Shown in pieces: positions 98 to 60,086 of a stretch of DNA of 64,000 bases. The stretch spans positions 26,823-90,822 of the forward strand of contig JAFGJQ010000501.1 of NCBI GenBank assembly GCA_016929015.1, given 5' to 3'. Origin of the DNA: Phycisphaerae bacterium (GTDB lineage: Bacteria; Planctomycetota; Phycisphaerae; UBA1845). The position numbers and the translations under genes are program-made. Position 1 is the first letter of the stretch, and every line of letters starts with the position of its first letter. The notes below the pieces were generated by a model. The model ran no database searches. It saw only the letters and a list, made by a program, of their open reading frames with translations, and was not told the DNA's origin.

Positions 98-2044
98 ATG
101 AGACAGCAGGATCCTCCCCCTGCCGGGACCGGTCACGCCCCGGTCCGACGGCCTTCCCAGGCAACAGACGTTCCCCACGGCGGTGATCTGATCGGCGCCC
201 TGGTCAGCGTTACGATCGACGACCACACCGTCAAGGTGCCCGTCGGCACGACGATCCTGGATGCGGCCCGCCGGGTCGGCGTGCATATCCCCACGCTGTG
301 CCACCACGACGATCTCTGCGTGGCCGGCGTCTGCCGCGTGTGCGTCGTTGAGGTGGAGGGCCAACGGACGCTCCAGGCGAGCTGCGCCTACCCCATCACC
401 CAGCCCACCACGGTGCGGACACACACCCGCCAGGTACGGCAGGCCCGGCGGCACATCATTGATCTGCTGCTGTCCGAGCATGCCGGCGAATGCACCACCT
501 GCTTCCGCAACGGCAACTGCGAACTCCAGGCGCTGGCCAAGGAGTACGGCGTTGATTCCTTCCGCTTCGGCCGGCCGGACCGGCCCCGGCACAAGGTGGA
601 TCGATCCAGCCACGCCGTGGTCCGCGACATGAACAAATGCGTGCTTTGCCGCCGGTGCGTGCGGACCTGCATCGACCTGCAGGAAGTCGGCGTCCTGGAG
701 GCCGTCGGTCGCGGAGAGGCGACGACGATCGCCACGTACCTGGACAAGCCGCTCGCCGAAATGATCTGCATCAACTGCGGCCAGTGCATCAACCGCTGCC
801 CCACCGGGGCGCTTCGTGCAAACGACCCGACTGACGAGGTCTGGGCCGCAATCGACGATCCGACAAAGCACGTGGTGATCCAGACGGCCCCCAGCCCGCG
901 CGCCGGGATCGGAGAGGAATTCGGCCTGGAGCCGGGCACGCCGATGACCTGGGAGATGAACACCGCACTGCGGCGATGCGGTTTCGACAAGGTGTTCGAC
1001 ACGAACTTCACCGCCGACCTGACGATCATCGAGGAAGGGACGGAGCTGGTTCTGCGGCTTCATAAAAACCTGGTTCAGGGCGATTCGTCGCTTCCGCTGC
1101 CGCAGTTCACGTCATGCAGTCCGGGGTGGATCAAGTACGTCGAGCATTTCTATCCGCAGTACCTGCCTCACGTCTCGACCTGCAAGAGCCCGCAGCAGAT
1201 GTTCGGCGCCCTGATCAAAACGTGGTACGCGCAACTCCACGGGATTGACCCGGCCGGCATCGTGTCGGTGGCGCTCATGCCGTGCTCGGCCAAGAAATTC
1301 GAATGCAACCGGCCGGAGATGTGCGACAGCGGGTACAAGGACGTTGACTACGGGCTGACCACGCGTGAACTGGCGCAGATGATTCGCGAGGCCGGTATCC
1401 ACCTGACCGAGATGCCCAGGAGCGATTTTGACGACCCGTTCGGAACGGCCAGCGGTTCCGGCGTCATCTTCGGTGCGACGGGCGGAGTGATGGAAGCGGC
1501 GCTCCGTTCGGTGATCGAGTTCGTCACCGGCAAGAAGGTCGAGGACTTCTACGCGCACGCGGACATCGTTCCCGTGCGAGGCTTCGAGGGATGCCGCCAT
1601 GCGGAGGTGCAGATTCCGAAGGAAGTGGGCCCCGTGCCGGGGCTCATCCGGCACCTCGTGCCCGACTGGAACTGGCTCAAGGGCGCGACGTTGAAGGTCG
1701 GCGTGGTTCACGGCACGGCCAACGCGCGCAAGGTGATGGAGGACATCAAGGCCGGCGGCCCGTTCAGCCAATGCCACTTCATCGAGTTCATGGCCTGTCC
1801 CGGCGGCTGTCTCGGTGGCGGCGGGCAGCCCATTCCGACCGGCCCCGCGATCCGCGCCGCACGGGCCCGAGCGATCTACGCCGAGGACGCGGCCTACGGC
1901 GAGGCGGGCAAGGCCCGCAAAAGCCATGACAACCCGGCGGTGCTGCGGCTGTACCAGGAGTTCCTGACGGACGGCCCGTGCGGTCACAAGAGCCACCATC
2001 TGCTGCACACGCACTATACGCCGCGCGGCAAGTACATCGGATAA
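98..2044 (+). CDS. hydA: [FeFe] hydrogenase catalytic subunit, CpI-like M3 architecture, with a variant L1 motif
   Basis: AGGAG lies about 6 nt upstream of the ATG. N-terminal 2Fe-2S motif (LCHHDDLCVAGVCRVC), His-ligated cluster (SEHAGECTTCFRNGNC) and two ferredoxin motifs (CVLCRRCVRTC, CINCGQCINRCP). H-domain motifs FDTNFTADLT, FTSCSPGW (L1 variant), MPCSAKKFE (L2), IFGATGGVMEAALR and EFMACPGGCLGGGGQP (L3). The sequence is collinear with my recollection of Clostridium pasteurianum CpI. Confidence 0.9.
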   Translation: MRQQDPPPAGTGHAPVRRPSQATDVPHGGDLIGALVSVTIDDHTVKVPVGTTILDAARRVGVHIPTLCHHDDLCVAGVCRVCVVEVEGQRTLQASCAYPITQPTTVRTHTRQVRQARRHIIDLLLSEHAGECTTCFRNGNCELQALAKEYGVDSFRFGRPDRPRHKVDRSSHAVVRDMNKCVLCRRCVRTCIDLQEVGVLEAVGRGEATTIATYLDKPLAEMICINCGQCINRCPTGALRANDPTDEVWAAIDDPTKHVVIQTAPSPRAGIGEEFGLEPGTPMTWEMNTALRRCGFDKVFDTNFTADLTIIEEGTELVLRLHKNLVQGDSSLPLPQFTSCSPGWIKYVEHFYPQYLPHVSTCKSPQQMFGALIKTWYAQLHGIDPAGIVSVALMPCSAKKFECNRPEMCDSGYKDVDYGLTTRELAQMIREAGIHLTEMPRSDFDDPFGTASGSGVIFGATGGVMEAALRSVIEFVTGKKVEDFYAHADIVPVRGFEGCRHAEVQIPKEVGPVPGLIRHLVPDWNWLKGATLKVGVVHGTANARKVMEDIKAGGPFSQCHFIEFMACPGGCLGGGGQPIPTGPAIRAARARAIYAEDAAYGEAGKARKSHDNPAVLRLYQEFLTDGPCGHKSHHLLHTHYTPRGKYIG

Positions 2045-2092
2045 CGCGTGCATGCGCAATGCGAGTTTCGACAGACACCGGGGAGCGGGAAA

Positions 2093-3160
2093 GTGAATCA
2101 CCTCACGGCGACGAAGAAGGACCTGCTCAGCGTTCCGATCGAGCATCTGGACCTCACGCAAGTCGACTACGCCCGCCAGGTGGACGCGATGGAACGCATG
2201 GCTTTCAGCAGCCGCGACTTGCACCGCGCGGCCCGGATCTACGGCACGATGCTCGGCGATCCGGACTGCGGCATCCTGCTGTGCCTGGCCGGCTCGCTGG
2301 TGTCGGCGGGCCTGAAGAAGGTCTTCGCTGACATGGTTCGCCACCGGATGGTTGACGCCGTTGTCAGCACCGGCGCGAACCTGATCGACCAGGACTTCTT
2401 CGAGGGCCTCGGGTTTCGGCACTACGTCGCCCCGGAACGCTACAAATCCGGCCTGGAGGACGACGTCCTCCGCGAACTCCACATCGACCGCATCTACGAC
2501 ACGTTCATCGACGAGGATGAGCTGCGCGTCTGTGACGACGTCTGCCGGCAGATCTTCGACGGCCTTGCGCCGGGGGTCTATTCCTCACGCGAACTGCTGC
2601 GTGAATTCGGCCGGCATCTCGATGCCCACGGCCGGAACCGAGACTCGCTGCTGCTGGCGGCCTATGAAACAGACGTGCCGGTCTTCGCGCCGGCGTTCTC
2701 CGACTGCTCGGCAGGCTTCGGGCTGGTCGGTCACATCGCCGCCCGTCAGGGAAAACCACGCCTTGTCTGGGACGGCGGCCGTGACTTCTACGAGCTGACG
2801 CAGTTGAAGATCCATTGTCCGAGAACGGGCCTCTTCATGATCGGCGGCGGAGTGCCCAAGAACTTTGCACAAGACATTGTGGTGGCCGCCGAGGTCCTCG
2901 GCCACGAGGTGGAAATGCATCGCTACGCGGTGCAGGTCACGGTGGCCGACGTGCGTGACGGGGCGCTGTCCGGCAGCACGCTCAAGGAGGCGTCGAGCTG
3001 GGGCAAAGTGGACACCGCGTTCGAGCAGATGGTCTACAGTGAGGCCACACTGGCCGTTCCGGCCATCGTCGGTCATGCGTACCACCAGGGCGTCTGGAAA
3101 AAGCGCGTTGCCCGACGCTGGCAGCGGTTCTTCGAGCAGGATGCACTCGCAACCGGCTGA
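2093..3160 (+). CDS. Deoxyhypusine synthase-like protein (DHS / homospermidine synthase family)
   Basis: Motifs LAGSLVSAGLKK, VVSTGANLIDQDFFE and MIGGGVPKNFAQD. The ORF opens at 2048. The start was set at the in-frame GTG 2093, so that the N-terminus (VNHLTATKKDLLSVPIEHLDL) resembles DHS N-termini. The start is uncertain. Confidence 0.75.
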   Translation: MNHLTATKKDLLSVPIEHLDLTQVDYARQVDAMERMAFSSRDLHRAARIYGTMLGDPDCGILLCLAGSLVSAGLKKVFADMVRHRMVDAVVSTGANLIDQDFFEGLGFRHYVAPERYKSGLEDDVLRELHIDRIYDTFIDEDELRVCDDVCRQIFDGLAPGVYSSRELLREFGRHLDAHGRNRDSLLLAAYETDVPVFAPAFSDCSAGFGLVGHIAARQGKPRLVWDGGRDFYELTQLKIHCPRTGLFMIGGGVPKNFAQDIVVAAEVLGHEVEMHRYAVQVTVADVRDGALSGSTLKEASSWGKVDTAFEQMVYSEATLAVPAIVGHAYHQGVWKKRVARRWQRFFEQDALATG

Positions 3161-5334: not shown

Positions 5335-5755
5335 CCACGTGCGACGACCGCTGTGACCGACCGAACGCGACGGGGCGGGCGGCAATGCAATCGGGAACAC
5401 GCGCGGGGGCCTGGATCGCGATTGGACACTCGCAAGCAGAGGGCGCCGTCGTGTGCTGCGCCGCCGGCTGCCGGGTTCACCCTTTCGTTCCCCCGGGGCA
5501 GAGCGGTCTCTCGTCCGAGAATCCCGTCTGTCGCATACACGGCGCTGCGGTGTCCACGGTTGCGGCCGGACAGACGCAAGAATGCCTCGGTTGCCGTTGC
5601 ACCGTCTCCGTCCGGCTCGGCAGGGGGTGTCCGATAACGCGTGCAAAAGAGGTAAACCCCGCGGCGGCTTTGGATTGGACGCCGTTTCACGGTTCTCCGA
5701 TGAATAGAGCGGAATTCCGCGATGGACGCACTTCCTGTCCCCGAAGGAGGATTCT

Positions 5756-8700
5756 TTGGATCTCGCGGAGGGCGTGCCGACAACTCAGCCGCAGGTCATC
5801 GCCGTTGACAAGGACAAGTGTGTCAACTGCCACGCCTGCATCTCGGCCTGTCCGGTCAAGTACTGCAACGACGGCAGCGGCGACTACGTAAAGGTCGACG
5901 CCGACACCTGCATCGGCTGCGGCAATTGCCTCAAGGCCTGTCTGCACGGGGCCCGCCGGTACGTCGATGACTTCGACGCATTCCTTGCGGACCTGGCGGA
6001 CGGCATGCCCATCGTGGGGATTGTCGCGCCTTCGGCGGCGGCGAGTTTCCCCGGAACGTACCTGAACCTCGTTGGTTGGCTGAAGGGCAAAGGCCTGCGA
6101 GGCGCATTCGACGTCAGTTTCGGCGCTGAACTGACTGCATACTCTCTGATCGAGCACATCCGGACGAATAGCCCCCGGCTTGTCATTGCCTCGCCGTGTC
6201 CTGCCATCGTTACGTTCATCCAGACGTACCGCCCGGAGCTGCTGGAGTACCTGGCCCCGATCGATTCACCGATGCTCCACACGATCAAGATGATCCGGGC
6301 GTACTACCCGCAGTTTGCCGACTGTCGGATCGCCGCCATCTCTCCCTGCGCCGCCAAAAAGCGGGAACTCGTGGACGGCGGGTGCGAAGGCTACAACATC
6401 ACGTTCCAATCCCTGGCTCGTTACCTCCGCGAAAGCGGCATCGACTTGTCGCGCGAGCCCGCGGGAGCATTCGAGAACCCGTCGGCTGAGCGTGCCGTAT
6501 CGTTCTCCACCCCGGGCGGCCTGCTCCACACGGCCCAGCGCTGGATGCCGGAGTTGGCCGAACGGACCCGGCAGATCGAAGGCAGCCCGGTCGTCTATGA
6601 ATACCTTCGGGCGCTGCCCGGCGTGCTGGCGCAGGGTCGCGCCCCGCTGCTGGTCGACTGCCTGAGCTGTGAATTCGGCTGCAACGCCGGTCCGGCCGCA
6701 CTGACGCGCGCCCAATCTCCGGATGAGATCGAGTACTGGATCCGCAAACGCATGGAGGCCGTGAAGACCCGGTGCGCGGATGCGGCGTCCGCAGGCCCCG
6801 ACGACGACGTCCGCGACATCACGGAGACGCTGTCCCGATACTGGCAGAGCGGTCTCTACGTGCGGCAGTACAGAGACCAGCACAGCCGGAACCGGATCCG
6901 GATTCCCGACGAGCGAAGCCGCTGGGTCATTCTCGGCCAGATGCACAAGTACTCGGAGGCCGACCTGTACAACTGCACGTCGTGCGGATACCTTTCGTGT
7001 GAGGGGATGGCCACCGCCATCTACAACGGCCGGAACAAACCCGAGAACTGCCACTTCTACCTGGCCCGGGAGCGGGAGATTTCTCATCGGGAGATGATCG
7101 AGCGAGAGAAGCGTTTTCGAAACATCCTCACCACGTGCATCGAGGGCTTCGTCTCCGTTGACAACGACTTCGTGATCCAGGAGATCAACCCGGCCCTCTG
7201 CCGCATGTTCGGCATGGGACCGGACCGGATCGTCGGCCGCAGTCTGCGCGACCTGACCGACGACTCGGGCAAAATGGAATTCGACCGCCAGCTCGAGCTT
7301 CGCAAGGCGGGCAACTCCAGTGTCTACGAAATCCGCATGATCCGCGGCGATGGCAAGGCCGTGGACTGCATCTTCAGCGCTTCGCCGATCCGGGACGGCA
7401 ACGGCCGCCGCGTGGGCTCCTTTGCGATGGTCACGGACATCACGGCGCGCAAGCAGGCCGAAGAGGCATTGCGGACGGCCCGTGACGACCTGGAACAGCG
7501 CGTTCAGGAGCGCACCGCGCAGTTGGCCCGAACAAACGAGAACCTGCACGTCGAGGTTGCCGAACGCAAGCGGGCGGAGGCCGCGCGGCATCTCAACGAA
7601 ATCCGGCTCGAGGCAATGCTCCGGCTCTACTCCATGAAGGAACGGAGCGTCAAAGAAATCAGCGACTTTGCCCTCGAACACGCCGTTGCCATCACGGACA
7701 GCCGGATCGGGTACCTGGCCTTCCTGAACGACGACGAAAGCGTTCTGACCATGTACTCCTGGTCCAGGAACGCGATGGCCGAGTGCGCCATCGTTGAAAA
7801 GCCGGTCGAGTACGCCGTGCACACGACGGGACTGTGGGGCGAGGCCGTTCGCCAACGCCGGCCGATCATCACGAACGACTACGCGGCGCCGAACCCGCAC
7901 AAGAAAGGCACACCGCCCGGCCACGTGCCGATCGTCCGCCACATGAACGTTCCCGTGTTCGAAGGCGACAGGATCGTGCTGGTGGCCGGCGTGGGCAACA
8001 AGGCCGCCGACTATGATGAGATGGACGTTCGGCAGCTCACCCTGCTGATGAACGGCATGTGGGACATCATCCGCCTCAAGCGGTCGCAAGAGGCCCTGCG
8101 GGCCGCCAAGGAGGCGGCGGAGGCGGCCACGCGTGCCAAGAGCGATTTTCTGGCGGTGATGAGCCATGAAATCCGCACGCCGATGAGCGGCGTGATCGGC
8201 ATGTTGGATGTGCTTCTCAAGTCACCCCAGCCGTCCGATCAGCAGCATAATACGCGGATGGCGCGAGACAGCGCGGAACTGCTGCTGGCGATCCTGGAGG
8301 ACATTCTGGACACGTCTCGGATCGAGGCCGGCAAGCTGTTGCTGGAAGCGATTCCCTTCCATCCCCGCGAAGTCCTCCTCCAGACCGTTGAGAGCTTCCA
8401 ATTACGGGCCCAGGCGAAGGGCCTGACCCTGACGTGCAACGTGGAAGCGAACGTTCCTCGGACGCTGGTCGGCGACCCGACGCGGCTCCGCCAGATCCTG
8501 AACAACCTGATTGCAAACGCCATCAAGTTCACCGATCAGGGCGGCGTGATCGTTCACGCCGTGTGCAAGGAGCGAACGGCAGGCGACGTGACCCTGGAGG
8601 TCAGCGTGCGTGACTCCGGCGTGGGCATTGCTCCGCATGCGTTGACCCGTCTGTTCGAGAAATTCCATCAGGCGGATACGTCCACCACCCGCAAGTACGG

Positions 8701-9760
8701 CGGAACGGGCCTGGGGTTGTCGATCTGCAAGGGACTGATCGATCTGATGGGCGGCACCATCGAAGTGGAGAGCGAACCGGGGCGTGGGTCCCTGTTCCGG
8801 TTCCGCGTGAAGCTGCCGATCGCAAGTCCCGAACAATCGGTCGAATCGTCCCGCAAGGACCGCCCTGTCGGCCCTGAGCCGCGACACGACCATTGCCTGC
8901 GCATCCTCTACGCGGAAGACGACCAGACGAATCAGGCGATTATCCGTATCCTGGTCGAACGCATGGGCCACCGGATTGACGTTGTAAACGACGGCCAGGA
9001 GGCCGTAGCCGCCCTGAGCGCTCGACGCTACGACGCCGTTCTCATGGACGGTCGGATGCCCGTGATGGACGGCTTTGCGGCGACCCGGGCCGTGCGCGAC
9101 CGCTCTTCGTTCGTGCTTGACCACGACGTGTACATCATTGCCCTCACCGCGAATACGTCGGCCGCGGACCGGGAGCGGTGTCTGGCCGCCGGCATGAACG
9201 ACTACCTGCGCAAGCCGGTCAAGGGGACCGAGCTGTTTGACGCCCTGGCTCGCACGATCCGCCATCTGACGTCGCACGGCGTGGCCCTCCCGGCGTTGTC
9301 CGGCCAGACGGAAGAATGCCCGGCTGCCCCGCCGGCCGTTCCGCCGCCCGCCCCGGTCCATCCCACGCCGGCGGTGGCGCCGGACGCGGCGCCGTCGATC
9401 GACCTGGCCACGGCGATTCAGGAACTCGGCGGACGGGACGTGGTTGACCGTCTGTTGGCTCGGTTTCTGACAGACGCCGAAACACAGCTTGGGATCCTGC
9501 ATGCGGCGCTGGAACCGCTGGAGCGCAAGACGTTGGAGCACATCGCGCACAAGCTCAAAGGCGCCGCGGCCGCATTGAAGGCCGCACCGCTGGCGCATCG
9601 CTCCGCCCAGCTCGAGGCGGCCGCCGCCACGGCGGAGCTCGCCGAGCTGCAGCGGCTCGCGCAATCCATGACGGAAGAACTGAAGCGCCTGGGCAACGTC
9701 GCGGGAGTCGTCCCGGATGTCGAGGAGAACGCATCACACGCCCGGCCTGCGAGTGGATGA
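5756..9760 (+). CDS. Hybrid sensor histidine kinase with an N-terminal ferredoxin plus [FeFe]-hydrogenase-like (HydS-type) sensory domain, then Fe-S domain, PAS, GAF, HisKA/HATPase, REC and Hpt
   Basis: AAGGAGG lies 5 nt upstream of a TTG start. 2x[4Fe-4S] ([23 protein letters not shown]). H-domain-like motifs [18 protein letters not shown] (L1-like), [10 protein letters not shown] (L2), FSTPGGLLH and [13 protein letters not shown] (L3-like). [17 protein letters not shown] is an RnfB/CFeSP-type Fe-S domain. PAS ([16 protein letters not shown]...), GAF ([14 protein letters not shown]...[18 protein letters not shown]), H-box [11 protein letters not shown]-box [11 protein letters not shown]-boxes DSGVGI and [13 protein letters not shown]. 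Receiver ([11 protein letters not shown]...[12 protein letters not shown]...KP) and Hpt ([13 protein letters not shown]). Confidence 0.9.
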
Positions 9761-9788: not shown

Positions 9789-10370
9789 TCACCAGTCATC
9801 TGACACGCGAAACCAGTACCAATCCTCAGCCAGCGGATGCAGTTCGTAGTGGGCCCGGCCGAACGGCGTGCCCGCCCGGTTGGGCCGGTACACGAAGCCA
9901 TACGAGACGCAGTCAACCATGTCCGGGTGCCGGTATACGACCAGATACTGCCCCCCGGCCGGGTCTTCGGCGTGCTCGATGACGCGATACACGCCCAGCC
10001 GGTGCGCACTGCTGCCCGTGGGGTCTGATTCCGGCGCTTCGGCCACGAATTGTTCGAACGCGGATCGCGAAGCCGCGAAGGCGATTCGACGCGGCACGTA
10101 GAACTTCAAAAGGGCACACGTGAGGCAGAGGATTGCCGCCGCCGCGGCTGCCTGCCGCCACGGAACGCGGATCTGTTTCAGCTTTCCGCGCCGGGCCAGC
10201 ACGATCAGGCAAACGACCGCACCCAGGCCGACCACCGGCACGACGACCAGCGCCAGCAGCACGCCGAAGAACAACCCCTGATTCAGCACACCCGGGTAGA
10301 TGCTGACGCCCAGCGCAGCCGCGCAACAGATCGCCAGAAGAGCAACGCCGATGCTCGCCGCCGTCCTCAT
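9789..10370 (-). CDS. Hypothetical membrane protein
   Basis: The start was set at ATG 10370 (MRTAASIGVALLAICCAAALG...), because the longer ORF (to 10589) would read through the tRNA-Leu gene. There are three predicted hydrophobic helices and then a soluble C-terminal domain. No family was recognised. Confidence 0.5.
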   Translation of the reverse strand: MRTAASIGVALLAICCAAALGVSIYPGVLNQGLFFGVLLALVVVPVVGLGAVVCLIVLARRGKLKQIRVPWRQAAAAAAILCLTCALLKFYVPRRIAFAASRSAFEQFVAEAPESDPTGSSAHRLGVYRVIEHAEDPAGGQYLVVYRHPDMVDCVSYGFVYRPNRAGTPFGRAHYELHPLAEDWYWFRVSDDW

Positions 10371-10428
10371 TCGCGACTGCGCCTCGTTACGCCAGCAGCA
10401 CAGAAAGAAACGATCACCCGCGATAGAC

Positions 10429-10512
10429 TGCCGGAGGAGGGAATCGAACCCACACCCTGTTGCCAGGACGGGATTTTGAATCCCGCGCGTCTGCCAGTTC
10501 CGCCACTCCGGC
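10429..10512 (-). tRNA. tRNA-Leu (anticodon CAA), class II with a long variable arm
   Basis: The minus strand reads GCCGGAGTGGCGGAACTGGCAGACGCGCGGGATTCAAAATCCCGTCCTGGCAACAGGGTGTGGGTTCGATTCCCTCCTCCGGCA. The acceptor stem GCCGGAG/CTCCGGC pairs. The anticodon stem-loop is GGGAT-TTCAAAA-ATCCC. The T-arm is GTGGGTTCGATTCCC. No CCA is encoded. Confidence 0.9.
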
Positions 10513-10585
10513 TGTCCGAGAGACCGTGCAGGCGGGCCCTCGGAAGTGTGCGAGCCTCGTATTGTCGGGGCTGGCGAGGAAATCG

Positions 10586-11422
10586 TCAACGGGTCTGCCG
10601 GTCCTGCACTGCGGTAAAGATGCGCAGGCAGCGATCCAGCAGGGATTCCAGCCGGTCCAGGGGGTAGACGGTGGCCGGGTCGGACCGGGCCCGCTCCGGA
10701 TCGTCGTGGACCTCAAGAAACAGGGCGTTGGAGCCGGCCGCCACGCCGGCCAGGGCCAGGGGCTCGACAAACTCGCGCAGGCCGCCGCTCTGTGAGCCGG
10801 CGGCGCCGGGAAGCTGGCAACTGTGCGTCGCGTCCATGACCACCGGGGCGAACGCCTGCATCCGGCGGATGCCGGTGAAGTCGTTCACCAGCCGGTTGTA
10901 GCCGAAGAAGGTGCCACGCTCGGTGAGCAGCACGTTCTCGTTTCCCGTCGAGGTGATCTTGCCCACCACGTTGGCCATTTCGTCGGGAGACATGAACTGC
11001 CCCTTCTTGACGTTGACCGCCTTGCCGGCCTTCGCGACGGCCAGCAGCAGGTCCGTCTGACGGCACAGAAAGGCGGGAACCTGGAGGCAGTCCAGCACCT
11101 TCCCGGCCGGACCGGCCTGTTCCGGCGCATGCACGTCGGAAAGCACGGGGATGTCCAGCTCGCGCCGGACCTCGGCCAGAATGCGAAGCCCTTCCTCCAG
11201 ACCCGGGCCGCGAAAGCTGTTCACGCTGGTGCGGTTGGCCTTGTCGTAGCTGGCCTTGAAGATGAACGGCATCTCCAGCCGTCGGGTGATGCGAGCGATG
11301 CCGTCCGCCATCCGCAACGTGTGATCGCGGCTCTCAATGACGCACGGCCCGGCAATCAGCACCAGTGGCTGCCCGCGGCCAATCTCAATGTTCGCAACCT
11401 GGGTGACCTCGATCGTCGCCAT
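10586..11422 (-). CDS. kdsA: 3-deoxy-8-phosphooctulonate (KDO8P) synthase
   Basis: LVLIAGPCVIES, FIFKASYDKANRTS, LQVPAFLCRQTDLL, VNVKKGQFMSP and DATHSCQLPG. Confidence 0.9.
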   Translation of the reverse strand: MATIEVTQVANIEIGRGQPLVLIAGPCVIESRDHTLRMADGIARITRRLEMPFIFKASYDKANRTSVNSFRGPGLEEGLRILAEVRRELDIPVLSDVHAPEQAGPAGKVLDCLQVPAFLCRQTDLLLAVAKAGKAVNVKKGQFMSPDEMANVVGKITSTGNENVLLTERGTFFGYNRLVNDFTGIRRMQAFAPVVMDATHSCQLPGAAGSQSGGLREFVEPLALAGVAAGSNALFLEVHDDPERARSDPATVYPLDRLESLLDRCLRIFTAVQDRQTR

Positions 11423-13026: not shown

Positions 13027-14370
13027 TCAGTGGACGGCGCCCTCGCCTGCGTCGTCCGTCAGGCCCGGGGCATCGGCCTCATCCGCAGGCAGGTCCTCGA
13101 CGGTGCGGAGCTTCCGTTCGATCGTTCGTGACTTCCTCGCGGCCGCGTCGATTTTGCCGGAGGCTTCTTCCAGCTTCTTCCGGACGGCCTCCAACGCCTC
13201 GCCGAACCGCCCGAACTCCCGCTTCACGACGGCCAGCAGGTTCCAGACCTCGCTGGAACGCTTCTGAATGGCCAGCGTCTTGAAGCCCATCTGGAGGGCG
13301 TTGAGCAGGGCGGCCAGTGTGGTAGGACCGGCCACGACGATGCGATAGTCGTGCTGAAGGGTCTCGGCCAGCCCCGGCCGGCGCAGCACCTCGGCATAGA
13401 GCCCCTCCGTAGGCAGGAACATCATGCCGAAATCCGTGGTGGCGGGCGGGCTGACGTACTTGTCGCGTATGTTCTTCGCGTCGTTGCGGATCTGCTGTTC
13501 GAGTTGCCGGATCGCCTGATCCGCCGCGGCCGCGTCGCCCGCTTCCTGTGCCTCCAGCAGCCGCTGGTAGTCGGCCTGCGGGAACTTGGCGTCGATGGGC
13601 AGCCAGACAACGTCCTGCCCTTCGTCCCGCCCGGGCAGGCGGATCGCAAACTCCACCCGTTCGCTGCTGCCCTCTTTTGTGGCCACGTTGCGGTCAAACT
13701 GTTCCGGCGTCAGCACCTGCGCCAGCAGCGATTCAAGCTGCACCTCGCCCCATGTGCCGCGGGTCTTGACGTTGGTCAGCACCTTCTTGAGGTCGCCCAC
13801 GCCGACGGCCAGCGTCTGCATCTCGCCGAGCCCCTTGTGGACCTGCTCGAGCCGCTCGCTGACCAGCCGGAACGACTCGCCCAGGCGTTTCTCCAGCGTG
13901 CCCTGGAGCTTCTCATCCACGGTCTGCCGCATCTGGTCGAGACGCTTGGCGTTGTCTTCCTGAATCGCCTTGAGCCGGGCGTCGACCGCGTTCCGCAGGC
14001 TCTCGAGCTGTTTCTCGTTGGTTTCGGTCAGCTTGCCCAGGCGCTGGGCAAATGAATCCAACTGGCCCTTCTGCAGCTCACCGATCGCCACCATCTGCTG
14101 GCGGACCGTGTCGTTGGCGGTTTTCTGCGAGCCGGCCAGTTCTTCCCGTAACTGCCGGTCGAGGCCGGCGGCCTCCTCGCGGGTCCGGGCCGCCTCCTCG
14201 CGGAATACCCTCTCCAGCCGTTCCTGGGCCCGCTCAGCCGATTCCAGGAACGGGCGCAGGGCTGTGGCGGCGTCTGCCGAGTCCCGCCGGGACCGGAGCC
14301 ACAGCAGCACCAGCCCGACCAGGTTCAGGCCCGCCAGGACCAGGAGAATCCAGAGCATCGCATCCGACAC
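13027..14370 (-). CDS. rmuC: DNA recombination protein RmuC
   Basis: An N-terminal TM helix is followed by a long coiled coil and then a nuclease-like core (VEFAIRLPG....VWLPIDAKFPQADYQRL; GMMFLPTEGLYAE), as is typical of the RmuC family. Confidence 0.85.
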   Translation of the reverse strand: MSDAMLWILLVLAGLNLVGLVLLWLRSRRDSADAATALRPFLESAERAQERLERVFREEAARTREEAAGLDRQLREELAGSQKTANDTVRQQMVAIGELQKGQLDSFAQRLGKLTETNEKQLESLRNAVDARLKAIQEDNAKRLDQMRQTVDEKLQGTLEKRLGESFRLVSERLEQVHKGLGEMQTLAVGVGDLKKVLTNVKTRGTWGEVQLESLLAQVLTPEQFDRNVATKEGSSERVEFAIRLPGRDEGQDVVWLPIDAKFPQADYQRLLEAQEAGDAAAADQAIRQLEQQIRNDAKNIRDKYVSPPATTDFGMMFLPTEGLYAEVLRRPGLAETLQHDYRIVVAGPTTLAALLNALQMGFKTLAIQKRSSEVWNLLAVVKREFGRFGEALEAVRKKLEEASGKIDAAARKSRTIERKLRTVEDLPADEADAPGLTDDAGEGAVH

Positions 14371-14540
14371 GACGTACGTTCCTGCTACATATCCCGATGG
14401 CCGGTGATGAACCCACCGCCGCCGGCAAAACCTCGGCCCGCGCCAGATTCGCTCCGATGCCGGGGCGCGTCAAGCATCGGCGTGTTTGGAAATGCGGGCC
14501 GCGGCACGCCATAATAGGCGGGCAGAGACACACAGTTGGA

Positions 14541-15428
14541 ATGTGCCACGGGAGATACATCATCGATACGACCAAACGGTATGAGCAGCGTGTGTTTGCC
14601 GACCATCCGCGGGAGTGGGGGGGGAACCGGTACGTCTACCCGGTCATCTCCCGCCGCAGCGGCGGCCTGAGCATCGGCGTGAACCTGAACCCGGACGCGG
14701 TGTGCAACTTTGCCTGCGTCTATTGCCAGGTGGACCGGTCGCAGCCGCCGCGCGTGCGGGACGTCGATACGGGCGTGCTGGAGCGGGAGCTGGACCAGAT
14801 GCTCGGCTGGGCGGTGGACGGCTCGATCTTCACGCACCCGCACTTTGCCGGCGTGCCGGAGACGCTGCATCGAATCAACGACATCGCGTTTTCCGGAGAC
14901 GGAGAGCCGACCACGTGTCCCGTGTTCCCGGAAAGTGTCAACGTGGCGGCGCGGCTCAAAGCGAAATGGGGCCTGCCCCAGGTGAAGCTCGTGCTGATCA
15001 CGAATGCCTGCTACCTCACCCGGCCGGCCGTGGCGGCGGCGCTGGACGTTCTGATGGCCAACAACGGGGAAATCTGGGCGAAGCTCGACGCGGGCACGGA
15101 TGACCGCCTGCGGAAAGTGAACCGCTCATCGTTTCCGCTGAAACACATTGTGGACGGAATTGCCGCGACGGCCGCGCGGTATCCGATCGTCGTTCAGTCG
15201 CTGTGGATGCGGCTGCACGACGCACCGCCGGACGCGTCGGAAGTGGAGGCATTCATCGACCGGCTGAACGAAATCCGCGACCGAGGGGGAACCGTCTCCC
15301 TCGTGCAGCTCTACGGTGTCGCCCGCCGACCGAGCGAACCGTTCGTCACCCCGCTTTCCAGCCAGGAACTGGGTGACATCGCTGCCCTCGTTCGCGACCG
15401 TACCGGCCTGAACGTCGTCACGTATTGA
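14541..15428 (+). CDS. Radical SAM protein (function unassigned)
   Basis: CxxxCxxC cluster motif CNFACVYCQV and FSGDGEPT (SAM-binding GGE-like). The start was moved to ATG 14541, because the 163-aa upstream extension of ORF 14052 is Pro/Arg/Gly-rich and antisense to rmuC. Confidence 0.8.
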   Translation: MCHGRYIIDTTKRYEQRVFADHPREWGGNRYVYPVISRRSGGLSIGVNLNPDAVCNFACVYCQVDRSQPPRVRDVDTGVLERELDQMLGWAVDGSIFTHPHFAGVPETLHRINDIAFSGDGEPTTCPVFPESVNVAARLKAKWGLPQVKLVLITNACYLTRPAVAAALDVLMANNGEIWAKLDAGTDDRLRKVNRSSFPLKHIVDGIAATAARYPIVVQSLWMRLHDAPPDASEVEAFIDRLNEIRDRGGTVSLVQLYGVARRPSEPFVTPLSSQELGDIAALVRDRTGLNVVTY

Positions 15429-15967: not shown

Positions 15968-16624
15968 TCACCCCGCGGCCGTGCGGGGCGTGGGGCGAAT
16001 CGCCTCGGGCAGACCGGACTCGATCGCCGAGGTGGTGGCCGCGGCGCGACGGAGCACGTCCGCGACCTGCTCCAGAATTTCCCGGCGTTGCGCCGCGTTT
16101 TCCAGCAGCGGAGCATTCACGCGAACGCTGTAGGCTGCCGCACGGACGCAGGCGTCCGCCAAAACGGCGGCCACGCCGAGATCGCTGAGCAGGTGCGGGT
16201 TCGCGCGGGCCAGCAACTGCTGCATCACGGTGAGCGCGCTGCCGGCGACGGCGGCGGTTTCCAGCGGTACGGCCAAGGCCACGCCGACGGCCTGTTCGCG
16301 AGCCGAGGGTTCATCGTGACCCTGACGTTTGGCTCGTTGCGCGGCGGACAGGGCTTCGTAGGCTGCGGCGTCCTCGTCCATCAATCGCCGCAACATGCCG
16401 TCCGCCTGGGCAAGCTGGTCGCACAGCGATTGAAGCGTCTCACTGTGTTCGCCGTCGGGCTTCCTGCCGACGGAGTACGCTCCCACCATGCGGGCCAAGG
16501 CGGCGGCCAAGGCACCGGCCAGAGCGGCCGCGCTGCCGCCGCCGGGCGTGGGCGTTCGGTCCGCCAGTCCGTCGAGGAACGCGGTGAGGTTCAGGGCAGA
16601 CGGCGGCTCGCGGTGTGCGGTCAC
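15968..16624 (-). CDS. Cyclodeaminase/cyclohydrolase family protein (FtcD C-terminal domain-like)
   Basis: FLDGLADRTPTPGGGSAAALAGALAAALARMV is the characteristic N-terminal motif of formiminotetrahydrofolate cyclodeaminase-like proteins. There is a 4-nt overlap with the upstream response regulator gene. Confidence 0.75.
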   Translation of the reverse strand: MTAHREPPSALNLTAFLDGLADRTPTPGGGSAAALAGALAAALARMVGAYSVGRKPDGEHSETLQSLCDQLAQADGMLRRLMDEDAAAYEALSAAQRAKRQGHDEPSAREQAVGVALAVPLETAAVAGSALTVMQQLLARANPHLLSDLGVAAVLADACVRAAAYSVRVNAPLLENAAQRREILEQVADVLRRAAATTSAIESGLPEAIRPTPRTAAG

Positions 16625-17085
16625 GGTTGTTGCCTCCGGTCGGTCGGGCGTTTGTCATCGGGCGGTGAGGGCCGCAGTTGTTGGCGCAAACGGCGAAGCT
16701 CCAGGAGCGATTGGATTCGCATCCGCAGTTCCACGCGATTGACCGGCTTTCGCAGGTAGTCATCTGCGCCGGCCTCGTAGGCCCGCTCGTAGTCGGTGTC
16801 TGTATTCAAAGCCGTCACCACAATGATGGGGATGTCGCGGGTCTGCGGGTCTTCCTTGAGAATGCGGCAGGCCTCAAAGCCGGACATTCGCGGCATCATG
16901 ATGTCCAGCAGGATGAGATCGGGGTGCGAGTCCCGCACGCGGGCAAGGGCCTGCTCGCCGTTGCGGGCGGTGAGGGTGGACACGTCCGGCATGTCCGCGA
17001 GGAACGCCTCCAGGAGCTCGGCGACCTGCGGGTGGTCCTCCACGATCAGCACGCGGGCGATCGGATGGGGCGGCGGCGTGTTCAT
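16621..17085 (-). CDS. Single-domain response regulator (CheY-like receiver)
   Basis: VLIVEDHPQV, DLILLDIMMPRMSGFE, IPIIVVTA and DDYLRKP. No output domain is present. Confidence 0.85.
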   Translation of the reverse strand: MNTPPPHPIARVLIVEDHPQVAELLEAFLADMPDVSTLTARNGEQALARVRDSHPDLILLDIMMPRMSGFEACRILKEDPQTRDIPIIVVTALNTDTDYERAYEAGADDYLRKPVNRVELRMRIQSLLELRRLRQQLRPSPPDDKRPTDRRQQP

Positions 17086-17324
17086 CTTCGTTCCCCGGGC
17101 GTTCGGCTCGTCCGTTTCCCGCCGGCACCGTGCAGGCTCGCAGCGCCAGGCCGGTCAAACCCGTTCGGTGCCGAGGGCCGGATGCCCGGCCCGCCGCGAA
17201 ACGCTTCGCATCCCCCCTGCGTGCCGTCCCGCACGCGGGCGGCGTCATCCGGCGGGCGGGCGTGCCGAGGCGCCCGACCCGCCGGAATCGCCGATTGTTC
17301 CGCTGATTCCCGTCGGCAGCCGCC

Positions 17325-17780
17325 TCACGGCATCATCAGGAACATGAAGAAGCAGGAGAACAGACCCACGGTTTCGGCGATGCCCATGGCGATGATGGAG
17401 AAGACGAACGGCTTGCCTTCACCGTCGCTCATGGCTCGGATGCCGGCCGCGCCGATGGCCCCCTGCATCCAGGCGCTGAACAGTTCGCCCAGCCCGCAGG
17501 CCAGACCGATGCTGCACAGGGCGCCCGCATTCTCCGCCAGAAAACCGGCCTCGTAGACCTTTCCTTTGAGCAGCGCCAGCATGAGCACGAAGCCGTAGAT
17601 GGTCTGGCTCAGCGGCATGCCGGTCAGCGCAATATAGAGAAAGTTCAGCCGCTTGCCTTCACGGGCTTCCTTTGCCCAGGCACCGGCAGCCGCCTGGCCG
17701 GCGGCGCCAATGCCCAACGCGCTGCCCACGGCTCCGAGTCCCAGCGGCAACGCAAATCCCAACTGACCAAGCCATTCCAT
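17325..17780 (-). CDS. atpK: V-type ATPase subunit K (proteolipid, 4 TM)
   Basis: Gly/Ala-rich TM hairpins. PLSQTIYGF, SAWMQGAIGAAG and IAETVGLF align with the E. hirae NtpK segments PGTQGLYGF, IAQGKVAAAG and MVETYAILGF. The start was set at ATG 17780 (MEWLGQ...). Confidence 0.85.
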   Translation of the reverse strand: MEWLGQLGFALPLGLGAVGSALGIGAAGQAAAGAWAKEAREGKRLNFLYIALTGMPLSQTIYGFVLMLALLKGKVYEAGFLAENAGALCSIGLACGLGELFSAWMQGAIGAAGIRAMSDGEGKPFVFSIIAMGIAETVGLFSCFFMFLMMP

Positions 17781-17799
17781 ACCTGCGTCTCCTTCGATG

Positions 17800-19674
17800 C
17801 TATTGCCCGCTTTGGACCCTTTGGGCAAACGGGGTAAACGGATATCCGGCCCACTGGACGCCGGCGTTGCTGGAGAACTCCAGCATGTTCAACCGCACGC
17901 CGTGGGCGAAAATGGCAATGACGCCCAGCACAATGTTCAGGGAGTGCGCCAGCACCACAATCAGCACGCCGGCCGGCAGCAACCAGACCGACGGTGAGGC
18001 CACCTGGTAGGCCAGGCCGTTGAAGGCGCTGGCGATGTAGTAGCTGGCCAGCCCCACCGCCATCAGGCGGATGTAGCTGACCGTGTCCGAGAACGTGCTG
18101 ATCATCGGCAGGATGTTCGCCACCAGGCCCAGCCCCACGCGCTTGGCCGGGTTCGGGCTGGGGTACGTGAACAGGACGACCAGCACGGCGCCCACCGCGA
18201 GCAGGCCGATGGTCAGCGGGACCGGAATCCAGACCTGATCCGGGAAGAACAGCATCCAGATCACGCCGAACATGCCCACCAGAAAGCCGCTCCAGCCGAT
18301 CTGGGCCAGGAACCGCCGGTCCGGGGCCATTCCGATTGCCTGTCGGACGTGCGCCAGCACCAGGTGCGCCCCGCCGATCAGGAAGCTGACCTGGATGATC
18401 AGGTTCCGTGCGATCTCGTCGTCGGGGTTCCACAGCAGGCCGAACGCCAGCATCATCCGCCCCAAAGCGGCCCACAGGCCGGTCGCTTCGCGCAGGGCGG
18501 ACACGTCTTCAACCCCCGCCGCAAAGGCGAACTGTTTGGGGGTGATGCCGAAGCAGTTGGCGGTCAGCAGCCCCCAGACCAGCGTTGCGCCGCCGAATAC
18601 CAGGATCAGGTTGGCCGCATCGCGACTCACGCGGTCGGTGATGCGGCGATAGCCCAGCAGTCCGATCAACACGAAAACCAGACCGTAGCCGGCGTCGCCG
18701 AGAAGCATGGCCCCGAACAACGGCAGGGCGACCATGAAGAAAACCGACAGGTCGTACTCCCGGTATCCCGGGACCGTGCCCAGAATGGCGAACATGGCCC
18801 GTATGGGCTGGGCCCACTTGGGGTACCGGATCAGCGTAGGCGGAGTCTCGTCCGGGTCGGGCTCGACGGTCTTCATGGCCGCCACCAGGCCCATGCGGGC
18901 GAGATCCTGCTTGAGCGACGCAGCCGCGTCGGCCGGCATCCAGCCCTGCAGGGCAAACAGGTGTTCGTCGTCCATCGCCCCTCGCACGGCCCGCGTGTAG
19001 TCCGCCCGCTCCTGCAAGTCGGCCAGGTGTTCCTCGACTAGGGGACGCAGGTTCGCCAACTGCCCGAGGCGCTGGGCGTCATGCTCCATGGCCTCCTGGA
19101 CCTCAGCGGCTTCCGCGCGGATGGACGGCGCGTCGCGCGTCGGCAGGGGAACGTGTTGGGCCCGTTTCGGTGCCAGCACCTCGCGACGCTGATCAATGGC
19201 CGCCACCAGCACCTTCTCTCCCGGAAGCTTGCTGACCGGCTGCACGCACGCGGCGTGGACTTCGTCAACCAGCTCTTCCGGCACGATGAAGAAGTGGATC
19301 TTCAGACCCGCCTGCTGTAGCGCCTCAAGCTGCTCGACCCGCACGTCACCCCACAGCGCGACGGAATCCAGTTGGCGTTCCAGTACGGCCAGGCGGCTCA
19401 GGCGTTCCGCCGTCCGCCGGTGGATATCCAGCACCTCGCGAACGACCTCTGCGGGGTCCGTCTCCGGGGTCGACCCGGACGGCGTGACGCCTTCCAGAAT
19501 CTGGATCACGCGTTCCACGTCGTGGATGCTGCCGGCCGTCTTCTCGTCCAGCGCCGCGCGGGTCGGGTCCAGCGGCGTCAGATGAACGACGCCCAGTTCG
19601 CGCAGGGCCTGCAGCATTCGTTCGCGGTCGCTCTGCCGGGCCGCAAGAAACAGCTTGGCCATCGGTACGATCAT
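17800..19674 (-). CDS. atpI: V-type ATPase subunit I (a-type stator/channel)
   Basis: The N-terminal cytoplasmic domain is about 300 aa (MIVPMAKLFL...), followed by multiple TM helices ending in ...SYIRLMAVGLASYY.., which carries the conserved Arg. There is a 4-nt overlap with atpD. Confidence 0.85.
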   Translation of the reverse strand: MIVPMAKLFLAARQSDRERMLQALRELGVVHLTPLDPTRAALDEKTAGSIHDVERVIQILEGVTPSGSTPETDPAEVVREVLDIHRRTAERLSRLAVLERQLDSVALWGDVRVEQLEALQQAGLKIHFFIVPEELVDEVHAACVQPVSKLPGEKVLVAAIDQRREVLAPKRAQHVPLPTRDAPSIRAEAAEVQEAMEHDAQRLGQLANLRPLVEEHLADLQERADYTRAVRGAMDDEHLFALQGWMPADAAASLKQDLARMGLVAAMKTVEPDPDETPPTLIRYPKWAQPIRAMFAILGTVPGYREYDLSVFFMVALPLFGAMLLGDAGYGLVFVLIGLLGYRRITDRVSRDAANLILVFGGATLVWGLLTANCFGITPKQFAFAAGVEDVSALREATGLWAALGRMMLAFGLLWNPDDEIARNLIIQVSFLIGGAHLVLAHVRQAIGMAPDRRFLAQIGWSGFLVGMFGVIWMLFFPDQVWIPVPLTIGLLAVGAVLVVLFTYPSPNPAKRVGLGLVANILPMISTFSDTVSYIRLMAVGLASYYIASAFNGLAYQVASPSVWLLPAGVLIVVLAHSLNIVLGVIAIFAHGVRLNMLEFSSNAGVQWAGYPFTPFAQRVQSGQ

Positions 19675-20336: not shown

Positions 20337-20355
20337 GTTCGGCCGATCTCCGCGG

Positions 20356-24121: not shown

Positions 24122-24125
24122 ATTC

Positions 24126-27330: not shown

Positions 27331-28491
27331 ATGACGGTGGCCGAGCATTCCATCCGGGCCAAGGTTGACGCGGGACGTCGCCTATCCGCCGAGGACGGCC
27401 AATGGCTGTACGCCTCCGCGGACCTGCACACGCTGGGACAACTGGCCAACCAAGTCCGGGAACGCCGGCACGGGCGCAGCGCCTACTACAACATCAACCG
27501 GCACATCAACTACACGAACTACTGCGTGCTGCGCTGCAAGTTCTGCTCGTTTTTCCGCCCGTGGCAAAAGGAGGCGGCGGACGGGTACGAGCTGACCGTC
27601 CCACAGATCGCCGATCAGGCGGCAGAGGCTTGCTCACGCGGGGCGACGGAAGTGCATATCGTGGGCGGGCTGCATCCGCGGCTGCCGTTCTCGTACTACA
27701 CCGACATGTGCCGGGAGATTCGCCGCCGCTGCCCGCGGATGTGCATCAAGGCCTTCACCGCCATTGAGATCATCCATTTCACCCGCATCGCCAAGCCACG
27801 GATGAGCATTCGCGACGTGCTGGTGGCGCTGCGGGAGGCGGGGCTGGACGCATTGCCGGGCGGCGGGGCGGAGATCTTCGATCCACGCGTGCACGACGAA
27901 GCGTTCAAGAACAAGGTGGGCGAGGCGGAGTGGTTCGAGGTGCATCGAACGGCCCACGAACTGGGCATCTTCACCAACGCGACCATGCTCTACGGCCACG
28001 TGGAGACGCCGGCGGAACGGATCGCCCACCTGATCAAGCTGCGCGAGCACCAGGACGAATCCTTGCGGTCGCGGCCGGCAAATTTCAACTGCCTGGTGCC
28101 GCTGCCGTTCGTTCCGGAAGGCAGCGCCCTGTCGCACCTGCCCGGCCCCACCGGCCTGACGAACCTGCGGACGCTGGCCGTCTGCCGGCTGATGGCCGAC
28201 AACATTCCGCACCTTAAGGCGTTCTGGATCATGCAGGGGATCAAGCTGTCGCAGGTTTCGCTGAACTGGGGCGTGGACGACCTGGACGGCACGGTCGTCC
28301 ATTACGACATCACCAAGCGGGACGGCGCCTCCACGCACCAGGAGATCACCGTGGACACGCTGCATCGCCTCATCCGCGAGGCCGGCTGCACCCCCATCGA
28401 GCGCGACACCCTCTACCGCCGCGTCCTCCGCACCCCCGACGCCTGGACAACCGGCGATCCCGTTGATCCCGGTTGCGGAACCGGCTCCTGA
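27331..28491 (+). CDS. Futalosine-pathway radical SAM enzyme (MqnE/MqnC family; the two cannot be separated by eye)
   Basis: INYTNYCVLRCKFCSFFR (CxxxCxxC), VHIVGGLHP, LPGGGAEIF, NATMLYGHVETPAERI and FIPLPF-like LVPLPFVPEG. Confidence 0.75.
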   Translation: MTVAEHSIRAKVDAGRRLSAEDGQWLYASADLHTLGQLANQVRERRHGRSAYYNINRHINYTNYCVLRCKFCSFFRPWQKEAADGYELTVPQIADQAAEACSRGATEVHIVGGLHPRLPFSYYTDMCREIRRRCPRMCIKAFTAIEIIHFTRIAKPRMSIRDVLVALREAGLDALPGGGAEIFDPRVHDEAFKNKVGEAEWFEVHRTAHELGIFTNATMLYGHVETPAERIAHLIKLREHQDESLRSRPANFNCLVPLPFVPEGSALSHLPGPTGLTNLRTLAVCRLMADNIPHLKAFWIMQGIKLSQVSLNWGVDDLDGTVVHYDITKRDGASTHQEITVDTLHRLIREAGCTPIERDTLYRRVLRTPDAWTTGDPVDPGCGTGS

Positions 28492-59889: not shown

Positions 59890-60086
59890 GTGCCACTCTT
59901 GAGCAGTGCTCGTTCCCCCTGGTGCCACTGCTTCTTGAGCAGTGGTCGTCCCCGCATCAGGGCCGTAGGCCCACCCGAGACCAGCCCGCCGTTTCAACGG
60001 CGGGTCCGCTCCGCCCCACCCCAATCCCCCGGTCCTGTAGGGACCGGATGAATCTGTGCCACTGCTTCTTGAGCAGTGCTTCCGAC
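59890..60086. repeat. Repeat family B, site 2: three hairpin units (two adjacent, one ~100 bp further on)
   Basis: gtgccactcttgagcagtgctcgttccccct (59890-59920), ggtgccactgcttcttgagcagtggtcgtcccc (59921-59953) and gtgccactgcttcttgagcagtgcttccgac (60056-60086). The core is cactgct-tcttg-agcagtg. The same family occurs at 30803-30902. Confidence 0.85.

Follow-up and report, generated by a model that had tools for sequence, protein, structure and literature searches.

The stretch of DNA analysed here (the window; 64,000 nucleotides) comes from a Phycisphaerae bacterium and corresponds to positions 26,823-90,822 of the forward strand of contig JAFGJQ010000501.1 in assembly GCA_016929015.1. It encodes a HydS-type sensor hybrid histidine kinase of 1334 amino acids (aa), in which a module of the [FeFe]-hydrogenase type is joined to a kinase, a receiver (REC), and an Hpt domain in a single chain. 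The open reading frame (ORF) 5756..9760 (+) is intact and uninterrupted, and its GC content at third codon positions (GC3) of 0.82 is usual for coding frames in the window, which has a GC content of 65%. The start codon is TTG, and a Shine-Dalgarno sequence is positioned five bases upstream of it. The highest hydropathy of the protein is 1.41 (Kyte-Doolittle scale, 19 residues), and therefore it is predicted to be soluble and to lack transmembrane segments. The gene, its leader, and the encoded domains are as follows:

5593..5755 (+), conserved 5′ region (leader or promoter) that includes the Shine-Dalgarno sequence AAGGAGG (5744-5750), defined by nucleotide homology to the closest relatives
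5756..9760 (+), complete gene of the HydS-type sensor hybrid histidine kinase, supported by the ORF, Pfam, and same-length orthologues that are 95%, 90%, and 88% identical
5795..5995 (+), two Fer4 clusters forming a ferredoxin-like F-domain (aa 14-80; Pfam Fer4 16-66), supported by Pfam Fer4 families and by cysteines invariant in alignments
6011..6694 (+), H-domain, Fe_hyd_lg_C PF02906 (aa 86-313), supported by Pfam (E 1.2e-26), the HydA alignment, and fold matches
6968..7054 (+), C-terminal accessory [4Fe-4S] domain, FeS PF04060 (aa 405-433), supported by Pfam and a motif check
7112..7456 (+), PAS domain (aa 453-567; PAS_9, PAS_4, and PAS), supported by Pfam
7640..8071 (+), GAF_2 domain (aa 629-772), supported by Pfam and an AlphaFold model with a pLDDT (predicted local distance difference test) score of 93.5
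8135..8818 (+), kinase core composed of HisKA/DHp (aa 794-859) and HATPase_c (aa 906-1021), supported by Pfam and the N, G1, F, and G2 boxes
8903..9247 (+), receiver, Response_reg (aa 1050-1164), supported by Pfam and catalytic residues
9449..9691 (+), Hpt domain (aa 1232-1312), preceded by an Ala/Pro-rich linker (aa 1169-1231), supported by Pfam and His1265

Every Pfam domain call is above its gathering score. The domains are arranged in the order of two [4Fe-4S] ferredoxin clusters, H-domain, Cx2Cx4Cx16C Fe-S domain, PAS, GAF, HisKA, HATPase, REC, and Hpt. The first-pass annotation of the window, made from the DNA sequence alone, had described a 1334-aa protein with this order of domains: two ferredoxin clusters and an H-domain homologue in the first approximately 400 aa, an RnfB/CFeSP-type Fe-S domain behind them, and a HydS-like module in one chain with a PAS-GAF hybrid kinase, REC, and Hpt. 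The description is borne out by the ORF, the Pfam calls, and the motif alignment. The two clusters of the F-domain have the motifs C22xxC25xxC28xxxC32P and C52xxC55xxC58xxxC62. The motif of the C-terminal cluster, C407-x2-C410-x4-C415-x16-C432, exactly matches the Cx2Cx4Cx16C motif of the M2e and M2f putative sensory hydrogenases (PMC8163306). In the AlphaFold model the PAS domain is followed by a long helix (aa 563-599). The kinase core contains the phospho-accepting His804 in the H box SHEIRTP, and the boxes of the HATPase are intact (N box N917-N921, D953xGxG, and G982GTGLGL). The receiver has the acidic pocket E1053-D1054-D1055, the phospho-acceptor Asp1098 in LMDGRMP, and Lys1150, and the phosphorylation site of the Hpt domain is His1265 in HKLKG. 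Since every catalytic residue of the kinase, receiver, and Hpt domain is kept, the protein is a hybrid (tripartite) histidine kinase by its motifs. The gene product is a predicted one-chain cytoplasmic protein, in which a putatively H-cluster-competent but proton-pathway-deficient hydrogenase module is coupled through the Fe-S domain, PAS, helix, and GAF to a His-Asp-His relay.

The residues of the H-cluster site were read from an alignment with the canonical HydA encoded in the same window (98..2044), and the key columns were tabulated over 361 sensor modules with any type of output. In loop L1 (IASPCP), the residue equivalent to Cys299 is Pro147, and the ligand Cys148 is kept. In L2, Met353 is replaced by Ser196, and Cys198, Lys201 (Lys358), and Glu204 (Glu361) are kept. 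In L3 (DCLSCEFGC), Met497 is replaced by Leu303, and the ligands Cys305 and Cys309 are kept. Further changes affect the proton pathway: E279 is replaced by Ser, S319 by Ala, and R286 by Thr. The Ala-Pro-Ser motif is present as A91-P92-S93, and its proline is conserved in 99% of the family; the equivalent residues of CpI, A230-P231-S232, are presumed to contact the CN- ligands of the [2Fe] subcluster. Across the family, the H-cluster ligands are conserved at approximately 100%, Lys358 at 97%, Glu361 at 100%, and the C-terminal cysteine motif at 98%, which argues for selection on cluster binding. The altered positions are also uniform, with Pro in 92%, Ser in 96%, and Leu in 99% of the modules. 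In the HydDB sensory set, Pro and Ser occupy the altered positions in approximately 10% and 32% of the proteins, respectively (PMC10055695).

The AlphaFold model of aa 1-600, computed with 37 homologues, has a mean pLDDT of 90.2. The best 50 Foldseek matches of the model in the PDB are all [FeFe]-hydrogenases, with a best E-value of 1.5e-21, and CbA5H, DdHydAB, TmHydA, and CpI match at 1e-21 to 1e-17. The sequence matches of the H-domain are likewise to genuine hydrogenases. The four ligand cysteines, the Lys, Glu, and Ala-Pro-Ser residues, and the fold characterise it as a true [FeFe]-hydrogenase H-domain. The alternative of a generic ferredoxin or Nar1-like domain disagrees with the presence of the H-cluster ligands in the alignment and with the Fe_hyd_lg_C match.

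The alignment also agrees with the earlier proposals that the four H-cluster cysteines and the lysine are retained, whereas the proton-relay cysteine is lost and both methionines are replaced, and the attribution of this pattern to sensory groups C and D fits the literature (PMC10055695, PMC8163306, PMC10407848). In the prototypical catalytic enzymes of Group A, Cys299, Met353, Met497, and the E279/S319/R286 pathway are present; all are replaced in the sensor kinase, and its best NCBIfam hydrogenase match reaches 128 bits against a cut-off of 450. Enzymes of Group C (M2f) have a PAS domain after the C-terminal cluster and have lost Cys299, Met353, and Met497 (PMC10055695, PMC8163306, PMC10407848). 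The same plan of two [4Fe-4S] clusters, H-domain, and Cx2Cx4Cx16C motif, directly followed by PAS at aa 453-567, is found here. Group D (M2e) is defined by the absence of PAS, and only the Ser/Leu pair is common to the window protein and TamHydS of that group. By its domain plan and motifs, the input module is provisionally assigned to the Group C (HydS/M2f-type) putative sensory [FeFe]-hydrogenases. In a rough neighbour-joining tree, the window protein is placed among kinase-fused sensors, adjoining forms with MCP or PP2C domains and forms with PAS only.

The fusion of the sensor module to a kinase is widespread. A full-length homologue search was evaluated for its 120 top-ranking 90%-identity clusters. 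Fe_hyd_lg_C occurs together with HisKA/HATPase in nearly all of them, REC is usually present as well, and approximately one third also have Hpt. The named sources of the fusions are Phycisphaerae, Anaerohalosphaeraceae, Smithellaceae, Kapabacteria, Hydrogenedentes, and Desulfobacterales, and the design is widespread among uncultured anaerobes. When 1.84 billion representatives were scanned exhaustively with HMMER, 687 proteins were identified at E <= 1e-30; the scan was unbiased with regard to output because the query was the sensor module only. Output classes were assigned with probes to the best 150 of the 687 representatives (50%-identity clusters). A kinase core was detected in 61 of the 150, an MCP domain in 51, a PP2C phosphatase in 15, and another output in 10, whereas 13 were short (<600 aa) with no output domain detected. 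Kinase fusion is thus the commonest output of the sensor cassette in this best-150 sample, and therefore the single-chain fusion is not unusual. The same cassette, at 45-57% identity, has a kinase, an MCP, or a PP2C phosphatase as its fusion partner, or the chain stops soon after the sensor or PAS and an output domain was not detected; such varied use is what would be expected if the cassette is a signalling input module. A search with the first 450 aa had returned mainly MCP, PAS-only, and PP2C forms (<=57% identity) and not the 88-95% orthologues; it was superseded by the full-length and exhaustive searches.

The novelty attributed to the single-chain fusion in the first-pass annotation was overstated: in addition to the 61 of 150 kinase-fused representatives, HydDB recognises the kinase-linked Group C1 (PMC5037454), and fused kinases are in print (PMC11406978). 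A literature search found no experimentally characterised single-chain hydrogenase-kinase fusion, which is absence of evidence only. The gene is a Phycisphaerae-specific member of a recognised and very common class, from which it is set apart by the PAS-GAF insertion.

Among the best 120 clusters, the GAF domain was found in the eleven closest (P0121-P0131) and in no others. Together with the window protein, these clusters form one clade in the rough neighbour-joining tree, and at 50% identity one representative stands for all of them; their named members are metagenome-assembled genomes of Phycisphaerae or other Planctomycetota. The PAS-GAF insertion is specific to the Phycisphaerae clade, and it is the only such feature of the fusion. 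Compared with close orthologues, the overall ratio of non-synonymous to synonymous substitution rates (dN/dS) is 0.13-0.16. The lowest values are those of the PAS-GAF segment (0.009-0.13, with 0.009 against the 95%-identical orthologue), and the highest are those of the Ala/Pro linker and Hpt (0.2-0.7), Hpt being the least constrained part. Of all segments of the sensor kinase, the GAF domain is under the strongest constraint. The identities of the individual domains agree with the dN/dS pattern, and by this measure conservation across the clade is highest in Fer4 and FeS. In P0130 and P0131, PAS and GAF are 79-85%, Fer4 87-90%, and the H-domain 73-76% identical to the window protein, whereas the kinase core is only 46-58% identical and Hpt is lacking. 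This pattern indicates that the input unit is the conserved entity and that outputs are exchanged within the clade.

The GAF domain is 55-69% identical to GAF_2 domains of many unrelated bacterial and archaeal signalling proteins (P0362-P0481), for example from Methanolobus, Methanoregula, Trichloromonas, and Anaerolineaceae, and even of an Anaeramoeba protein, where its partners are HAMP, STAS, REC, or PAS. Among 100 homologous GAF domains, Cys677 is conserved in 98%, His723 in 98%, and His729 in 93%, and the motifs GLWGE, NDY, and GVGNK are also near-invariant. Such conservation suggests that the GAF_2 subtype may have a common cofactor or ligand. A sequence search of the PDB with the GAF region returned no match. 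Among PDB structures, the GAF-A domains of DosS and DosT in their haem-bound form come closest in fold, with template modelling (TM) scores of 0.71-0.78 at 15-16% identity and a small margin over cGMP-type and other GAF domains (Foldseek 7e-8 versus 3e-7). Haem is covalently bound in the kinase MsmS of Methanosarcina acetivorans (PMC8396549, PMC6944256). By its near-invariant Cys/His pair and the narrow lead of DosS and DosT among its fold matches, the window GAF domain is a putative haem-binding sensor of the DosS/DosT or MsmS type. In MsmS the haem is attached within a GAF domain, at Cys656 and His702; the 46-residue spacing of these sites would equal that of Cys677 and His723, which serves as a lead only. 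The Cys677/His723 pair and the DosS/DosT fold match make a second cofactor input possible, and the GAF domain probably adds such a cofactor-dependent input.

The sensor kinase gene looks monocistronic and orphan. Nucleotide homology with the closest relatives starts at 5593-5660 of the window and stops shortly past the stop codon, with the exception of L089, in which it extends to the contig end within a tRNA-Leu gene. Further upstream of the leader, the sequence is unrelated in every relative. No regulatory RNA was found by Rfam at gathering scores in the 420-bp region upstream of the gene, and scans of this region for sigma-70 promoters and terminators gave results no better than those of shuffled sequences. 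The other features of the window are as follows:

98..2044 (+), hydA, NCBIfam NF040763, 789.6 bits against a cut-off of 765
2048-3160 (+), bacterial deoxyhypusine synthase homologue directly after hydA, Pfam DS (E 3e-85)
10429-10512 (-), tRNA-Leu(CAA) in the downstream convergent region
16621-24755 region (-), V/A-type ATPase cluster (subunits K, I, D, B, and A)
27331-28491 (+), aminofutalosine synthase MqnE of the futalosine menaquinone route, 444 bits against a cut-off of 434.55
41525-43375 (-), RACo-type reductive activator of corrinoid proteins, Fer2 and RACo domains
59959-60004 (-), Acido-Lenti-1 small RNA, Rfam 39.9 bits against a gathering score of 37

As first annotated, the sensor gene lies 3.7 kb downstream of the end of hydA on the same strand. 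The region between them contains the deoxyhypusine synthase homologue, two NAD-dependent epimerase/dehydratase genes, and the 420-bp gap. HydA passes the cut-off of the family NF040763, "NADH-dependent [FeFe] hydrogenase, group A6", and it implies that the organism makes H-clusters and that its genome has a maturation system. Its L1 is TSCSPGW instead of TSCCPxW, a variant that also occurs in HydA1 of Acetobacterium woodii (7q4v), as seen in a PDB alignment. A truncated ORF at 1-88 (ending in SIIEHFRREIPSRVPVTVEA and a stop codon) terminates at base 88, ten bases before the start of hydA; the ORF may encode the end of a NuoF-like HydB subunit, and hydA could therefore close the operon of a multimeric hydrogenase.

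The neighbourhood of the sensor gene is not conserved even in the closest orthologues. Those with 95% and 90% identity are flanked by purine and ProRS genes, the one with 88% identity is beside an Nqr operon, and those with 62-64% identity are beside sulfatase and glycosidase genes. No Group A hydA was found within 10 kb at 88 related loci by tblastn with the window HydA and its N-terminal 250 aa; only sensors matched. Proximity to hydA thus gives little support for regulation of that hydA by the sensor. The idea that the sensor gene is an operon partner of hydA was rejected, since the 88 loci lack hydA and synteny breaks approximately 100-160 bp upstream of the start codon. In agreement with the first-pass annotation, neither hydE, hydF, or hydG nor a DNA-binding response regulator gene was found among the scanned ORFs of the 64-kb window, some short ORFs being unscanned. 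Two radical-SAM ORFs were considered as HydE or HydG and rejected: 27331..28491 (+) encodes MqnE, and 14052..15428 has no NCBIfam match.

In orthologues with 62-64% identity (L001 14002-14751; L009, L011, and L082), a gene of a 249-aa protein overlaps the stop codon of the kinase and is translationally coupled to it. The protein begins with a receiver, its C-terminal half is helical and matches no Pfam family, and it is a likely phosphorelay partner in these orthologues. It was rejected as a partner here, since the window contains no copy of it, only a weak match to the CheY-like gene 16621..17085. This CheY-like receiver gene and a gene with an FTCD_C domain (15968..16624) are positioned directly downstream of the V/A-type ATPase on the same strand. 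The tRNA-Leu gene stays near the sensor gene in L089, L090, and L013, and the 5′ flank differs in every genome. The ORF 9789..10589 (-) contains tRNA-Leu(CAA) and has no Pfam match, and is therefore probably spurious or shorter. DUF1559/N_methyl proteins are also encoded in the window, in keeping with the phylum Planctomycetota.

The protein is more probably than not a one-chain sensor kinase in which a Group C hydrogenase input senses H2 and the relay leads to a response regulator encoded elsewhere. H2 would bind to and reduce a slow-turnover H-cluster, whose redox state, together with that of the accessory clusters, would alter the conformation of the adjacent Fe-S/PAS unit. The change would pass through the helix and the GAF domain to the DHp helices and switch the autokinase at His804. 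The phosphoryl group would then be transferred from His804 to Asp1098, His1265, and the response regulator encoded elsewhere, and the relay does not have to regulate the nearby hydA. A separate redox input may enter through the Fe-S clusters or the GAF domain. TmHydS and TamHydS bind the [2Fe] subcluster and exhibit slow, sensor-like behaviour despite equivalent substitutions (PMC10055695, PMC8163306, PMC10407848).

Several points weigh against H2 sensing by this route. Signalling is not known from any Group C enzyme, and as late as 2026 H2 sensing was described as "putative" (PMC13104023). In TamHydS, H2 does not reduce the C-terminal cluster, for which a stronger reductant is required (PMC13104023); this undermines a relay from the H-cluster through the C-terminal cluster to PAS; the 2026 study thus weakens the favoured model of how the signal leaves the H-domain in Groups C and D. 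The Pro/Ser/Leu triad of the whole cassette family is that of no characterised enzyme. It differs from the triads of TmHydS (Ala/Gly/Ser) and TamHydS (Ala/Ser/Leu), and no enzyme of the Pro type has been studied. The M497L variant of CpI fails to integrate the [2Fe] subcluster (PMC10055695). To these are added the lack of hydE, hydF, and hydG among the scanned ORFs, the lack of a conserved hydrogenase gene beside any of the 88 related loci, and the fact that no cognate response regulator was identified in the window.

Some of these points would agree with a general redox, O2, or CO sensor, in which the Fe-S clusters (the N-terminal pair, the low-potential C-terminal cluster, or the H-cluster) report ferredoxin or cellular redox poise or oxidant damage, and H2 is incidental. 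The reductant requirement of the TamHydS cluster, the high conservation of Fer4 and FeS across the clade, the missing linkage to hydrogenase genes, and the intrinsic sensitivity of H-clusters to O2 and CO (PMC8163306) are in its favour. However, a plain redox sensor would not need the four ligands, Lys358, and Glu361, which are conserved at 97-100% over 361 proteins, and TmHydS and TamHydS do react with H2 (PMC10055695, PMC8163306), so that this explanation is rather unlikely. Retention of Lys358, Glu361, and the Ala-Pro-Ser motif is also difficult to reconcile with an H-domain that holds just a [4Fe-4S] cluster and lacks the [2Fe] subsite, similar to Nar1/NARF or apo-HydA, and acts as an Fe-S scaffold or status sensor. 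Such a domain would explain why hydEFG were not found among the scanned ORFs, and Leu at the position of Met497 would fit the effect of M497L on [2Fe] integration in CpI (PMC10055695). The authors of the Hydrogenedentota survey were unable to identify the classical motifs P1-P3 in enzymes of C1 and questioned whether H2 is sensed by them (PMC11406978). Nevertheless, TamHydS with the same Ser/Leu pair incorporates [2Fe] (PMC8163306), HydA of the window implies a maturation system, and the best sequence and fold matches are all genuine hydrogenases. An H-domain without the [2Fe] subsite is therefore very improbable.

The strong constraint on the PAS-GAF segment, the similarity of the GAF domain to those of unrelated signalling proteins, the conservation of Cys677 and His723, and the DosS/DosT fold matches would be expected if GAF were the dominant input, for example as a haem- or thiol-based gas or redox sensor like MsmS/RdmS or DosS/DosT, and the hydrogenase module only modulated it. 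We consider this quite doubtful, since most HydS-kinase fusions lack GAF, and the sensor module thus works without it; moreover, the Foldseek margin is small at an identity of 15-16%, and its cofactor is putative. It is also possible, although unlikely, that the protein is a two-input gas and redox coincidence detector. The H-cluster would report H2, the cofactor-containing GAF domain (haem or redox thiol, Cys677/His723) would report redox state, CO, or O2, and the two would jointly gate a phosphorelay that controls a wider anaerobic programme. Such a programme, rather than hydrogenase expression, is proposed as the target because no hydrogenase gene is conserved beside the sensor gene.

For H2 sensing by a one-chain kinase, the fusion offers a direct read-out, autophosphorylation under H2 compared with inert gas, which the stand-alone HydS proteins studied so far do not have. 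This advantage belongs to the whole large class of fusions and not to this gene in particular.

TmHydS of Thermotoga maritima (Group C, M2f) has the same plan of two [4Fe-4S] clusters, H-domain, Cx2Cx4Cx16C motif, and PAS as the window protein. It also keeps the H-cluster ligands, has Cys299, Met353, and Met497 replaced, and has lost the proton pathway (PMC10055695, PMC8163306). However, no domain after PAS has been described in TmHydS (PMC10055695), whereas GAF, HisKA, HATPase, REC, and Hpt follow in the window protein, which, in contrast to TmHydS, has no conserved hydrogenase neighbour. TamHydS of Thermoanaerobacter mathranii (Group D, M2e) shares with the window protein Ser and Leu at the positions of Met353 and Met497 and the C-terminal cluster motif, and its gene adjoins that of a kinase-like ATPase (PMC8163306). 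In contrast to the window protein, it lacks PAS and a fused output and has Ala, not Pro, at the position of Cys299 (PMC10407848), and its gene is located upstream of a bifurcating hydrogenase. HydDB Group C1, "histidine kinase-linked (putative)", ties the H-domain to histidine-kinase signalling (PMC5037454), and Group C proteins of Hydrogenedentota have fused HATPase and His-kinase domains in a 2024 survey (PMC11406978), as is the case here. These published kinase-linked or fused Group C cases were described by domain annotation, and neither the PAS-GAF insertion nor the full REC-Hpt relay was described there.

The [NiFe] regulatory hydrogenases of Group 2b with HoxJ/HupT are functional analogues, in which a slow, inhibitor-tolerant H2 reporter acts on a PAS-containing kinase (PMC5037454, PMC8163306). 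However, their metal centre and protein family are unrelated to those of the window protein, the sensor and kinase are separate chains, and the kinase is not a REC-Hpt hybrid. The unorthodox tripartite kinases TorS, BarA, and ArcB share with the window protein the layout HisKA-HATPase-REC-Hpt and its His, Asp, and His sites. Orthology to them was rejected, since the window protein misses all three NCBIfam equivalog cut-offs (TorS, the best, 398.7 versus 676.5; BarA 370.4 versus 890; ArcB 295.9 versus 838). In contrast to these kinases, the window protein is predicted to be soluble, lacks transmembrane and periplasmic sensing parts, and has an entirely different input module.

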